Assembly: GCF_965228715.1 (NCBI RefSeq)
Contig: NZ_OZ245833.1
Length of the DNA stretch: 64,000 bases
Direction: 5' to 3' (one strand)
DNA from: Stappia sp.
GTDB taxonomy: Bacteria; Pseudomonadota; Alphaproteobacteria; Rhizobiales; Stappiaceae
The stretch's first letter is position 1. Each line of letters starts with the position of its first letter. Made by a program: the position numbers and the translations under genes. Positions 2,375 through 8,772 of the stretch are shown here, one piece after another. The notes under the pieces are model-generated. The model searched no databases, had not been told where the DNA came from, and saw only the letters and a list, made by a program, of their open reading frames with translations.

Positions 2375-2401
2375 GCTCAGGCATCAACATGGGAGAACGG
2401 C

Positions 2402-2605
2402 ATGAGCAAGCTGCTCCGACGCCCCGGCAAAGGGGAAGTCGTTACCTATTCGCTTCGGCCGCACAAAAAGGGTCAGGCCCCCTTTTCCGACATCAAGCTC
2501 GCTGACGGTACGATCATCCGACGCGTGGACGAGTCCGTTCATCGCCGGGCCCTGGAGAAAGTCAATTCCGCGTTCCGCAAGCAGAAGCTCAAGGAACCGG
2601 CCTGA
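2402..2605 (+). CDS. Small basic hypothetical protein (67 aa)
   Basis: ATG at 2402 preceded by GGGAGAA; MSKLLRRPGKGEVV...KQKLKEPA; stop overlaps next start (TGATG). Confidence 0.65.
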   Translation: MSKLLRRPGKGEVVTYSLRPHKKGQAPFSDIKLADGTIIRRVDESVHRRALEKVNSAFRKQKLKEPA

Positions 2606-3186
2606 TGGACGAGGGAGCGGAAACTGCCAAACCGGCTGCGGCATTTTCTGGAACACCCTCACATTACAACAGAATCTTCGAGTTCTATGCAGAGAGCAAC
2701 GGCGACGATCTGGATCTCGTCGGGCTTGTTGCCTACGCGCTCTACAAGCGGCAAAAACGCGACTGGATCCTGAGGCATCAGAACGAGACCGGCGCTCGTC
2801 CGACAGACAGTGAGATGGCTGCAGTCATTGGCAACTATCTTACGGAAGACATGCGCACCACGCTGCGCGAGCGGGCGCAGGACTTTCTGTCGGAATATGG
2901 CGAAGCCTTTGCGGAAGCGGCAGAGCCCGAGATCGTCGAAGAGGCTCTCAACAGTGAGATGGTCCGCAAGGCGGAAGCATGCCAGAGAAGCGCAGAGGAA
3001 ACTCACGCCAGAATTCTGTCTGAAGTATCGCGCAATGGCGGATGGTGGCGGCAAATCTGGGCGAGTCTTGTCTCGGCTTTTGTGTGGACGTTCATCCTGA
3101 TCGTGATACTGGTCGGCGCAAAGCTGTTTGGGATCGACCCACTCGACGGTTGGTTCGCTCTAAACGGCCAGACAGAGCAACACTGA
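2605..3186 (+). CDS. Hypothetical protein, helical soluble N-terminus plus one C-terminal transmembrane helix
   Basis: 193 aa ORF coupled to upstream ORF; hydrophobic [30 protein letters not shown]; lower GC than flanking his genes. Confidence 0.75.
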
Positions 3187-3202
3187 CCTTCGGATTTCTC
3201 CC

Positions 3203-5398: not shown

Positions 5399-6364
5399 AT
5401 GGAACAGACCGTCAGCAGATACCGGGACGACGACCTGTCGCCCTACCGGGTCTTCTCCGAGGACCAGTGGGCCCGGCTGCGCGCCGACACGCCCATGACC
5501 CTGACGGCCTCGGAAGTCGCGCGCCTGCAAAGCCTCAACGATCCGGTCTCCATCGCCCAGGTGGAATCGATCCTGCTGCCGCTCTCCAGGCTCCTGGCCT
5601 ACTACGTGGAAGCGACCCAGCAGCTTCACCGGGCGACGAACCGCTTCCTGGGCTCCAACGAGGTGAAGAACCCCTTCGTCATCGGCCTTGCCGGATCCGT
5701 CGCGGTGGGCAAATCCACCACCGCACGCCTGCTTCAGGCGCTTCTGGCGCGCTGGCCGGCTAGCCCCAAGGTCGATCTCGTCACCACCGACGGCTTCCTG
5801 CACCCCAACGCGGTGCTGGAGCGGGAAGGCCTGATGCGGCGCAAGGGGTTCCCCGAAAGCTACGACCGCACGACGCTGCTCACCTTCCTCTCCGACCTCA
5901 AGGCCGGGCGGAGGCACGTGCGCGCGCCGGTCTACTCCCACTTCTACTACGACGTGATGCCGGACCAGTATGTCACCGTCGACCGGCCGGACATCCTCAT
6001 CCTCGAGGGGCTGAACGTTCTGCAGACCTCCAACCTGCCGCGAGACGGCAAGGAGGTGCCCTTCGTCTCCGACTTCTTCGACTTCTCGATCTACATCGAT
6101 GCCGACGAGGACGTGCTGCACGAATGGTACGTGAAGCGCTTCATGCGCCTGCGCGAGACCGCGTTCCGCGACCCCGGTTCCTACTTCAACAAGTATTCGA
6201 TGGTGGGCGAGAACGAGGCGCTGGAGATCGCCGAGGACCTGTGGCGCGAGATCAACCTGGTCAACCTGCAGGAAAACATCCTGCCGACCCGCCCGCGCGC
6301 CGACCTGATCCTGCACAAGAACCGCGATCACGCCATCGACGAGGTCCGCCTGCGCAAGCTTTAA
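5399..6364 (+). CDS. coaA: Type I pantothenate kinase
   Basis: [13 protein letters not shown]-loop, [26 protein letters not shown]. Confidence 0.98.
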
Positions 6365-6456
6365 CTAAGTTTGGGAACCAACGCAGCTCACACTTTAAAT
6401 TAATTAATTATTAACCAAAAAAATCTAATTTCTATACATTGTAGGAGATAGGTGAC

Positions 6457-7050
6457 ATGGATGCGACTTACAACTTGAACGGAGGCTTCAAGCCAACTGT
6501 TAAGCGTTTCGCAGACCTAGAAGGGCCTGATTTTTTTCCTACTCCAGCATGGGCAACGCATGCTCTGATCGAGAATGAACCCTTTTCCGGGGAGATATGG
6601 GAATGCGCCTGCGGAAACGGGGCCATGTCTGAGGTTCTCGAGTGCACAGGCAATAGCGTGTTCAGCTCAGATTTGTTTGATCGCGGCTATGGCCAGCCTG
6701 GGATTGATTTTAAGGTATCCACTCGGAAAGCTGACAACATTATCACCAATCCACCATATAACAGTGCAGAGGAATTTGTTCATCAAGGGCTTAAACTTTC
6801 GCGCAATAAGTTCGCTCTACTACTCAGGCTCGCCTTCCTAGAAGGTGCAAACAGAGCAAAGAATATATTTCAATCCTCACCTCCGTCACGAGTCTGGGTA
6901 TTCAGCGAACGTATTACATTTTATCCAGCTGGTGCCGTTCGAAAAGGCTCCGGCACAACCGCATATGCTTGGTTTGTTTGGGATAAGAGCTCACCATCCC
7001 ACACCGAGCTAAAATGGCTTAAACCAGGTTACAAGCGGAAATACACTTAA
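6457..7050 (+). CDS. Small SAM-dependent amino (N6-adenine/N4-cytosine) DNA methyltransferase, solitary
   Basis: DFFPTP (motif X), WECACGNG (motif I), IITNPPY (motif IV), ALLLRLAFL, AYAWFVWDK; motif order X-I-IV; strong RBS GTAGGAG. Confidence 0.8.
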   Translation: MDATYNLNGGFKPTVKRFADLEGPDFFPTPAWATHALIENEPFSGEIWECACGNGAMSEVLECTGNSVFSSDLFDRGYGQPGIDFKVSTRKADNIITNPPYNSAEEFVHQGLKLSRNKFALLLRLAFLEGANRAKNIFQSSPPSRVWVFSERITFYPAGAVRKGSGTTAYAWFVWDKSSPSHTELKWLKPGYKRKYT

Positions 7051-7364
7051 GACCTAGATTCAAGAAAGGCGCGCCCGGCCGGGGTAATCTCAAGCCCGCC
7101 TTTAACATGCTTGAGCCATCCCTCTGCAATATAATTTCCATCCGTATTAGAATGGCTCTTAATATTCCGAACTCTTTGCTCCCATTTCTGCTCGCCATCA
7201 CGGCTCTCTGAATCTTCTTTATCAGCGTCCGTAAAAGTAATTACCTTTGGCAGCTCTAGAATTAAATCCTGAATAGACAGGCGCCCAGAAGGAACCGTGT
7301 TCAAAATTATTAAAATTGCAAAAGAAATTTCGGACTCTGTAGTCCTACCTTGGTGATCAGGCAT
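7047..7364 (-). CDS. Stand-alone winged-helix protein, Mrr N-terminal-like (105 aa)
   Basis: MPDHQGRTTESEI...KWEQRVRNIKSH...GWL...GGLEITPAGRAFL resembles the wHTH ending GxxxITxxGRxxL; stop overlaps MTase stop at TTAA 7047-7050. Confidence 0.55.
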   Translation of the reverse strand: MPDHQGRTTESEISFAILIILNTVPSGRLSIQDLILELPKVITFTDADKEDSESRDGEQKWEQRVRNIKSHSNTDGNYIAEGWLKHVKGGLEITPAGRAFLESRS

Positions 7365-7399
7365 ATCAAAACCCCAGCACAAAAATAGTAACTTTGGTA

Positions 7400-7428
7400 A
7401 ATTAGATAGCGATATAGACGCTGGTCAA
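7400..7428 (-). promoter_or_regulatory. sigma70-type promoter for the wHTH gene
   Basis: Minus strand TTGACC-N17-CTAATT. Confidence 0.6.
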
Positions 7429-7470
7429 TAGCAATTATGCCAAAGGCTGCGGTAGCAGTATATGATCCGC

Positions 7471-8772
7471 TCAGTCCGGCGACATGCCGTTGGCGGCAAG
7501 AACCTCGCCCGCCAGGTAAAGCGAACCGCACACCAGAACGCGCGGCGGCACATCGCCCTCGCGCGGCAGACGACGCAGCGCCGCCTCGACGGACGGCGCC
7601 ACGTCCGCGACAAGCCCGGCCGCGCGCGCGGCCTCGACAAGGTCCTCCGGATCGCGACCGTTCTCCGTCGTGCGCAAGGCCACGCAATCCACATGCGCGG
7701 CCAGTCCCTCGAACGGCGCGAAGAAGCCGACGGGATCCTTGGTCTTGAGCATTCCCGCAACGAGATGCAGCGAACGCGGCGCGCGTTCCTCCCGGTCGGC
7801 CATGGCGGCGGCGATGACCATGCCGGCGCCGGGGTTGTGCCCCCCGTCGAGCCAGAGCTCGGTGCCCGGCGGACAGAGATCGATAAGTGGTCCCGCCCCG
7901 ATCGGCTGCATCCGCCCCGGCCAGTCGACCCGCTGCACGCCGCCCTCGACCGCCTCGACGGCGGGAAGCAGCCCCGCGGCCTTGAGCGTCGCGACGGCCA
8001 TGGCGGCATTGACGATCTGGTGCGCGCCGGACAGCCTCGGACGGGGCAGGTCGAGAAGCCCGTCCCCGTCCTGGAAGACGAGACGCCCCCCCTCTTCCCA
8101 GGCCGTGAAATCCTCGCCGAAGACGGTGAGGGGCGCGGCAAGCTCGCGGGCGCGGGCGCGAATGACATCAAGCGCCGCCTCGTCCTGCGGCGCGACGACG
8201 GCCGGACGGCCGTGCTTGAGGATCCCCGCCTTCTCGAAGGCAATGCCCTCAAGGGTCTCGCCCAGGTAGCGCTCGTGGTCCATGGACACCGGCGTCAGCG
8301 TGGCCGCCAGCGGCGCGTCCACCACGTTCGTGGCGTCGAGACGTCCGCCCAGCCCCACCTCGAGCAAGAGCACGTCGGCCGGCACCTGCGAGAAAAGGTG
8401 GAAGGCGGCGGCGGTCGTCACCTCGAAGAAGGTGATCTCGCGGCCTTCATTGACCTGCTCGCACCGGTCCAGCGCATCGAGAAGCTCGGCGTCGTCCACC
8501 AGCCGCCCGGCAAGGCGGATGCGCTCGTTGAAGCGCACGAGATGGGGAGAGGTATAAACGTGCACGCGCAGACCGGCGGCCTCCAGGATCGCCCGCATGA
8601 AGGCGGTCGTCGATCCCTTGCCGTTGGTTCCGGCGATGTGCACCACCGGCGGGAGCCTGTCCTGCGGCCGCCCGAGCGCCTCCAGCAGGCGCTCCATGCG
8701 TCCGAGCGACAGATCGATCTCGCGCGGATGCAGCGCGAGGAGCCTGTCGAGAATGGCCGTGACCTGATCCAT
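7471..8772 (-). CDS. folC: Bifunctional folylpolyglutamate synthase/dihydrofolate synthase
   Basis: HIAGTNGKGST, YTSPHLVRFNERI, EVGLGGRLDATN, LDGGHNP, CGSLYLAGE. Confidence 0.97.
   Translation of the reverse strand: MDQVTAILDRLLALHPREIDLSLGRMERLLEALGRPQDRLPPVVHIAGTNGKGSTTAFMRAILEAAGLRVHVYTSPHLVRFNERIRLAGRLVDDAELLDALDRCEQVNEGREITFFEVTTAAAFHLFSQVPADVLLLEVGLGGRLDATNVVDAPLAATLTPVSMDHERYLGETLEGIAFEKAGILKHGRPAVVAPQDEAALDVIRARARELAAPLTVFGEDFTAWEEGGRLVFQDGDGLLDLPRPRLSGAHQIVNAAMAVATLKAAGLLPAVEAVEGGVQRVDWPGRMQPIGAGPLIDLCPPGTELWLDGGHNPGAGMVIAAAMADREERAPRSLHLVAGMLKTKDPVGFFAPFEGLAAHVDCVALRTTENGRDPEDLVEAARAAGLVADVAPSVEAALRRLPREGDVPPRVLVCGSLYLAGEVLAANGMSPD

Follow-up and report, generated by a model that had tools for sequence, protein, structure and literature searches.

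A conserved converging gene pair in Alphaproteobacteria joins a minimal predicted DNA methyltransferase to a winged-helix protein without a nuclease

A DNA methyltransferase (methylase) gene that faces a gene for a small winged-helix protein, with no nuclease in company, raises the question of whether the two form a unit and, if so, what this unit does. In Stappia sp. (contig NZ_OZ245833.1), such a pair occupies a low-GC islet at positions 6365–7470 of the 64,000-nucleotide stretch analysed here (the window). GC content is about 0.45 in the islet compared with 0.68; in 400-nt segments it stays at 0.43–0.51 across 6201–7600, whereas values of 0.60–0.73 prevail on either side. The islet, ~1.1 kb in length, fills the gap between the converging genes coaA and folC, and the list of open reading frames (ORFs) of the window places only two long ones in it, a methylase ORF on the plus strand and a winged-helix ORF converging on it from the minus strand (Table 1). 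A first-pass annotation, made from the sequence alone, had described an AT-rich islet of exactly two convergent genes, and both the composition dip and the ORFs confirm this description. The further details it had listed, namely stop codons overlapping at a TTAA, a strong ribosome-binding site (AGGAGA) ahead of the methylase gene and a TTGACC-N17-CTAATT promoter ahead of the winged-helix gene, can likewise be read in the sequence. The evidence assembled below establishes that the methylase and its winged-helix partner, without a nuclease, are a real, conserved unit. As to its role, we see about an even chance that this cassette is a mobile orphan writer equipped with a dedicated winged-helix regulator or reader and with promoter feedback through GANTC sites. 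No published description of the gene pair was found in full-text literature searches.

The strongest evidence for a unit comes from related genomes. A methylase relative is encoded in 422 species-level genomes, and the best 80 of these, with loci found via the methylase query, were surveyed for the pairing. A winged-helix homologue lies on the opposite strand at 80/80 loci, and in 78 of the 80 it is no more than 15 bp away from the methylase 3′ end or overlaps it; recurrence on this scale places the arrangement beyond chance. A few mislabelled or unassigned contigs of metagenome-assembled genomes (MAGs) excepted, all 80 loci belong to Alphaproteobacteria. In a class-wide sample of 250 evenly drawn genomes, the five with a close methylase all carry the partner, adjacent and converging (5/5), as opposed to none of 16 more distant methylase homologues (0/16), which lack an N-terminal tail described below. 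Approached in reverse, from the partner, a converging gene of methylase size (197–198 aa) abuts it in 3/3 loci. The 3′ ends overlap in 64/86 loci, most commonly by 4 bp (25/86). In Stappia sp. TSB10GB4 (locus L001) the coaA|folC site likewise holds the methylase, together with a converging ORF 65% identical to the window partner, and the same layout is found at other chromosomal sites in Sphingomonas, Hyphomonas, and Mesorhizobium. The convergent pairing, for which the first-pass annotation had considered that it might be unique to this genome, thus recurs widely, from whichever gene it is approached.

A nuclease is not part of this unit. The islet holds two genes only, a recognisable nuclease as converging partner is missing from all 80 loci, and PADLOC returned neither a defence-system nor a nuclease match on the islet, in agreement with the absence of a nuclease noted initially. 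Is the pair then what remains of a larger locus? According to one alternative, it is a decaying restriction-modification (R-M) or Mrr remnant, or else an RNA or protein methylase with an unrelated neighbour gene. The resemblance of the partner to the N-terminal domain of Mrr, the presence of tRNA and rRNA N6-methyladenine (m6A) enzymes among the fold neighbours of the methylase, and the lack in the window copy of the promoter GANTC sites typical of the family would fit this alternative. It is nevertheless very improbable, given that the pair is intact at 80/80 loci without a recognisable converging nuclease, that the partner family is full-length (98–110 aa), that characterised methylase relatives act on DNA (as reported in PMC5537653), and that both genes are under purifying selection. 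Compared with the Stappia TSB10GB4 copy, the partner has a ratio of nonsynonymous to synonymous substitutions (dN/dS) of 0.105; for the methylase, dN is 0.109 and dS is saturated. The R-M relic was rejected on the 80/80 conservation and on this selection, and the suggestion of the first-pass annotation that the islet might be the relic of an R-M/Mrr locus has to be given up, a nuclease partner being present at 0/80 loci.

The methylase carries a motif X (the FFPTPAW region, residues 26–33), a motif I (WECACGNGA, residues 48–56), and a motif IV (NPPY, residues 98–101). All three had been recognised from the start, and their order X-I-IV is that of the gamma class. The protein matches PHROG 799 (“DNA methyltransferase”) with an E-value of 1.8e-60; searches of Pfam, NCBIfam, and PADLOC gave marginal matches only, PF01555 did not match, and PDB sequence searches with both islet proteins as queries yielded nothing meaningful. 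Its homologues form 6533 clusters, of which the best 120 are about 197–217 aa long and 74–86% identical, and include Mesorhizobium, Sphingomonas, Xanthobacter, Hyphomonas, and many further genera. The window methylase keeps all of the 93 invariant alignment columns, among them NPPY and the loop binding S-adenosylmethionine (SAM; WECACGNG, residues 48–55). An AlphaFold2 (AF2) model with a predicted local distance difference test (pLDDT) score of 77.8 shows one Rossmann domain and no target-recognition domain, in line with the earlier remark that there is little room for the latter. The closest solved folds found by Foldseek are NPPY amino-methylases, namely a TrmN6-like protein, TrmM, M.TaqI, and METTL5. 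Ahead of the catalytic motifs, residues 1–25 (window 6457–6531) form a near-invariant tail that is predicted to be disordered (pLDDT <50) and is confined to the methylase subfamily having the winged-helix partner. Third-codon entropy amounts to 1.3–1.7 bits along the entire gene, codons 1–25 included; synonymous sites are therefore free and the conservation, that of the tail included, is on the protein.

Relatives of known activity exist among phage and prophage enzymes with alphaproteobacterial hosts. The window methylase is 37% identical to phiLM21 gp27/p027 (pairwise BLASTP E 2e-33; tblastn to phiLM21 E 7e-25). This protein (218 aa) and three enzymes of Paracoccus aminophilus (JCM7686_1231, JCM7686_2255, and JCM7686_2934; 179 aa) belong to the same family, are likewise of minimal size without a recognition domain, and share the NPP[YFW] and SAM-binding motifs. 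In PMC5537653, p027 expressed alone in Escherichia coli is reported to render DNA resistant to HinfI, which corresponds to m6A in GANTC, and the same is reported for the three Paracoccus prophage enzymes, likewise expressed alone; these enzymes are there ascribed a “CcrM-like specificity” (Dziewit et al. 2014 as cited in PMC5537653). Despite their relatedness, several differences exist. The phage enzymes lie upstream of phage replication genes and on the same strand, lack a winged-helix neighbour, and do not have the invariant 25-residue tail, whereas the window methylase sits in a stand-alone chromosomal islet and belongs to a tailed subfamily, about 75% identical between orders, in which the converging partner is always present. 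No sequenced phage was found to carry a methylase homologue above 60% identity. Taken together with its motifs, these likenesses make it likely that the window methylase acts on DNA adenine. GANTC is the likely mark because of the characterised relative and of promoters rich in GANTC across the family; for this assignment we put the odds at even or slightly better.

Two further methylase homologues deserve mention. The same genome encodes a second, distant homologue (G000:C1:1092251-1092823, locus L005) of 37% identity, which is tail-less and has no detected winged-helix neighbour. A 285-aa protein (P0001) on one 1.6-kb ENA contig is a methylase homologue with an internal duplication of ~85 aa from NPPY through the C-terminal part; the duplication is probably an assembly artefact.

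The partner was characterised in a similar manner. Alignment of homologues places its start at ATG 7364 (105 aa, MPDHQGRTTE) and not at TTG 7382 (111 aa). A single-sequence search gave three homologues owing to a word-index limit, whereas a profile search gave 663 clusters, with 468 representatives at 50% identity, nearly all of 98–110 aa. Against Mrr_N (PF14338) the window partner scores 20.8 bits (E 4.4e-4), the Pfam cut-off being 29.5 bits, and 55 of 70 family members match at E ≤ 0.01, the best with E 3.3e-10. In an AF2 model (pLDDT 87.6; predicted template modelling score 0.79) the 105 residues are all winged helix, of topology H-strand-H-H-hairpin-H, and include no catalytic domain. Foldseek against PDB and viral models returned generic matches only (E > 0.03), among them MarR, forkhead, and MukE winged helices. 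As to the comparison with the Mrr N-terminus and the DpnI winged helix put forward in the first-pass annotation, the fold is a winged helix, and neither DpnI nor Mrr is among the top 50 fold matches. That the gene is a truncated fragment of a longer Mrr or HNH gene, also considered there, was ruled out by the full-length family and by the domain order of its longer relatives. These are rare and carry the winged helix at the C-terminus, the reverse of Mrr. The proteins so extended include a beta-class DNA methylase (P0258, P0254), an NgoFVII-like PLD nuclease (P0390), and a DinD-like plasmid protein (L128:1442-2770, Zymomonas plasmid pZM36) annotated as DNA-damage-inducible protein D; Mrr_cat was found in none of the ten longer relatives scanned. 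Judging from such fusions, the domain serves modification and restriction enzymes as a module for binding DNA.

The family retains 13 invariant residues, all kept in the window partner, and those that cluster in or before the recognition helix (WEQRVRNIKSH, residues 61–71) are S52, R55, W61, Q63, R66, N67, I68, S70, H71, and N77. Mean pairwise identity across the domain is 0.35. Since recognition-helix residues are invariant at such low overall identity, the partner probably binds a single, fixed DNA motif. A long form of ~228 aa occurs at ten loci (L022, L027, L030, L032, L036, L039, L040, L047, L076, and L096; for example L030:5588-6271, minus strand), several of them in Acetobacteraceae and Rhodospirillales. 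Here a conserved N-terminal domain of ~115 aa, for which Pfam, PADLOC, and PDB-profile searches gave no match, precedes the winged helix, whose recognition helix is altered (WQQIVGNVISH). In the public record of Stappia sp. TSB10GB4 the winged-helix gene is uncalled (L001:5591-5956), and protein databases therefore under-count the partner family.

Several known systems couple methylation to DNA binding in comparable ways. The C-terminal winged helix of DpnI reads Gm6ATC. The partner shares the winged-helix fold with Mrr and DpnI, and the Mrr_N matches are weak but repeated in the family; it differs from both in being a stand-alone protein without Mrr_cat or any other nuclease. Type II R-M systems with a controller (C) protein also couple a methylase to a small DNA-binding protein, and a converging layout is common among them. 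The cassette, however, has no endonuclease, its winged helix occupies the converging position often held by the cognate endonuclease, and the partner is of the Mrr_N and not of the Xre type; HTH_3/Xre did not match it, and no C-box was identified in the cassette promoters. Some methylases, such as M.SsoII and M.EcoRII, repress their own promoter through a fused helix-turn-helix. P0258, a winged helix fused to a methylase, is alike in construction, and such fusions are rare.

A further system to compare is CcrM, which by methylating GANTC sets the timing of the alphaproteobacterial cell cycle and whose own promoter contains GANTC sites acting back on its transcription. CcrM probably writes the same mark as the cassette methylase, and most cassette promoters carry GANTC sites as the CcrM promoter does. 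In contrast to the cassette enzyme, CcrM belongs to the unrelated beta class (PF01555), has about 360 aa with a C-terminal domain, and is core and vertically inherited, whereas the cassette is accessory and mobile. The genome under study has a true CcrM elsewhere (E 7e-171 to 6PBD). A second GANTC writer would thus duplicate an existing mark, which argues for a regulated, low-level, or conditional expression of the cassette methylase.

The promoter regions of the family are rich in GANTC. In the 110 nt upstream of methylase starts, 173 GANTC sites are found at 86 loci where 35 are expected (4.9-fold), and no other gapped palindrome exceeds 1.5-fold. Two tandem sites lie 5′ of the −35 element, and a GATTC abuts the −10 element in 39/66 loci. 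At homologous positions the middle base differs between loci (GAGTC, GAATC, GATTC), which is what constraint on GANTC as a unit would produce. GANTC is also enriched, 1.7-fold, ahead of the partner gene, and in many relatives the −35 element of the partner promoter reads TTGACTC, a GANTC site. TGANTCA occurs in 38/86 methylase promoters versus 6/83 partner promoters; the preference for a T at position −1 of GANTC (61%) does not suffice to define an operator. Some lineages have inverted CTTAG/CTAAG elements and conserved promoter blocks, and the window and its Stappia relative keep TTATTAACC and TTGACC promoter blocks. The consensus promoter scan did not list the methylase promoter predicted for the window, and it found no terminator at the junction of the two genes; each transcript must therefore enter the other gene.

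These observations can be accommodated in the following model. The methylase would be a minimal N6-adenine writer of the small phage-type family, and the partner would bind operators located in the promoter of the methylase and, in many cases, in that of the partner gene. With GANTC at fixed positions in the promoters of most lineages, the output of the methylase could be fed back via their methylation state, much as CcrM limits its own promoter, and the two genes, transcribed towards each other with no terminator between them, would in addition interfere with one another. Substrate, target sequence, DNA binding by the partner, regulatory role, and methylation sensitivity are points that we infer here. 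For the partner, the role that we favour most is that of a regulator or reader belonging to the cassette itself, with odds that we put slightly below even.

Several findings weigh against this model. Neither promoter contains a GANTC in the window copy or in its closest relative, and across the islet 4 such sites are counted, 4.1 being expected. All promoter GANTC sites have disappeared from the Stappia-type copies, that of the window among them; feedback is therefore not visible at this locus, and may have been rewired or relaxed in this genome. The CcrM/GcrA circuit of the host could equally well read promoter GANTC sites without the partner, for which no match to known C proteins was obtained. 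Whether an adenine methylase acts on DNA or on RNA cannot be read from the fold search, in which TrmN6/TrmM and METTL5 score like M.TaqI. The characterised relative is just 37% identical, a distance at which specificity can shift. Natural truncations of the partner occur beside an intact methylase in a Hyphomonas MAG (L015:4594-4965) and in Mesorhizobium (L028:5595-5828), from which it follows that the partner is not strictly required; sister contigs that retain the partner encode a methylase identical to the one of L015. Finally, the invariant disordered tail of the paired subfamily hints at a protein–protein link, which a pure regulator model does not need.

The tail is the starting point of a second explanation, in which the two proteins form a two-part methylase and the winged helix is a DNA-targeting subunit that docks on the tail and sets or narrows the target. 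The absence of a recognition domain from the methylase, the confinement of the tail to the partnered subfamily, its constraint as a near-invariant and supposedly disordered peptide, and the C-terminal fusion of the same winged helix to an unrelated beta-class DNA methylase (P0258, P0254) would all fit such an enzyme. However, tail-less relatives of similar size methylate GANTC alone in E. coli (PMC5537653), enzyme subunits are normally co-transcribed and not converging with overlapping 3′ ends, and some loci lose the partner while the methylase stays intact. This explanation is accordingly regarded as quite unlikely.

The truncated partners bear on a third explanation as well, a restriction-like or addiction module without a nuclease, in which the winged helix binds the unmethylated target and blocks replication or transcription while the methylase protects the host. 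The block would fall on DNA entering the cell or, where the methylase has been lost, on the cell's own chromosome, and the pair would spread as a selfish element. The broken gene at L015 and L028 is indeed the partner and not the methylase, but loci were found via the methylase search, which biases against seeing any other decay than that of the partner. Such a module would also agree with the tail-to-tail layout, typical of methylase-endonuclease pairs, with a methylase far more conserved than its partner (0.74 versus 0.35 mean identity), as in R-M systems, with the fusion of the winged-helix family to an NgoFVII-type PLD nuclease in P0390, and with a patchy distribution, foreign composition, and residence in housekeeping-gene spacers and on a 5.8-kb plasmid. 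On the other hand, a partner that is a 105-aa winged helix without a catalytic domain offers no effector, PADLOC finds no match, and the host CcrM would already methylate GANTC, which would make for a weak test of self and non-self in this class. On balance a module of this kind seems unlikely. A new nuclease-free methylation system, either a selfish module that protects or blocks DNA and has a bare winged helix in place of the endonuclease, or a methylase that docks a separate reader via its tail, is possible, if doubtful; if it were real, mobile DNA would have its own, private way into the GANTC code on which the alphaproteobacterial cell cycle runs. Should instead the model of an orphan writer with its own regulator or reader hold, a mobile second, probably GANTC-specific writer and its DNA-binding partner would let foreign DNA tap or disturb the CcrM circuit, and the cassette would provide a compact example of a writer with a reader or regulator but no nuclease. 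It is present in hundreds of species and annotated as “hypothetical” nearly everywhere.

The distribution of the cassette is patchy; it sits in spacers beside housekeeping genes and on a plasmid. The latter is pHAE2, a 5.8-kb cryptic plasmid of Paracoccus haeundaensis, in which the cassette (L129:1476-2412) adjoins rep, a resolvase gene, and a DndB-like gene; this plasmid is a possible vehicle for its spread. Across the family, the cassette has a mean GC of 0.52 and the flanks one of 0.64, and there is a weak correlation between cassette GC and that of the host (r 0.18). At the coaA|folC site, the stop codons of the two genes are about 10–51 bp apart in 14/16 congeners, which represents the empty site. 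In a comparison of filled and empty sites, the spacer is replaced by 1086 bp; this comparison revealed no target duplication and no terminal or inverted repeats at the junctions, and the islet encodes no recombinase. A coaA tree places the window sister to an empty-site species, and the flanks in Stappia TSB10GB4 are ~98% identical to those of another empty-site genome. A single ancestral insertion followed by vertical descent was rejected, as the tree sets the two filled species apart, each beside an empty-site relative. In both Stappia-type copies, 4-fold sites have reached saturation, and the GC content at third codon positions (GC3) is near 0.45–0.49 in genomes with GC3 near 0.9, a pattern explained either by recent gains, made separately at one spacer, or by selection favouring AT-rich sequence; a dS comparison does not settle the age of the cassette, 4-fold sites being 64–95% saturated in all four genes. 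It is puzzling how a 1.1-kb unit without recombinase, repeats, or target duplication came to land in the same spacer of 10–50 bp in two non-sister species. Two congeners (G009, L104:1-1500; G002) have an unrelated insert of ~1.6 kb and host-like GC in the coaA|folC spacer, encoding a TetR-like regulator, a DoxX-like membrane protein, and a glutaredoxin. Insertions have thus occurred at this junction repeatedly.

Table 1. Features of the islet and its flanks in window coordinates (L001, locus of Stappia sp. TSB10GB4)
Feature	Position	Strand	Evidence
coaA (pantothenate kinase), left flank	5399–6364	+	ORF; PF00485 on the syntenic gene in L001; stop abuts the islet
Left end of islet and 5′ region of methylase gene	6365–6456	+	Sequence; TTATTAACCAAA block kept in Stappia L001
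Methylase promoter (predicted)	−35 TTAACC 6411–6416; 16-nt spacer; −10 TATACA 6433–6438	+	Consensus match only
Methylase ribosome-binding site AGGAGA	6443–6448	+	Sequence
Methylase, gamma-type NPPY N6-adenine (predicted), 197 aa	6457–7050	+	phrog_799, homologues, AF2 model
TTAA common to both stops, 4-bp gene overlap	7047–7050		Sequence
Winged-helix protein, Mrr_N type, 105 aa	7047–7364	−	Mrr_N profile, AF2 model, homologue alignment
Partner promoter (predicted)	−10 CTAATT (AATTAG on +) 7400–7405; 17-nt spacer; −35 TTGACC (GGTCAA on +) 7423–7428	−	Consensus match only
Right end of islet and 5′ region of winged-helix gene	7365–7470	−	Sequence; GGTCAATA kept in L001
folC (folylpolyglutamate synthase), right flank	7471–8772	−	ORF; Mur_ligase_M on the syntenic gene in L001

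Elsewhere in the window, a second and milder dip in GC (0.57) at 2400–3200 lies over a DUF2628-type gene between hisB and hisH, and the Stappia relative has this gene in the same place.

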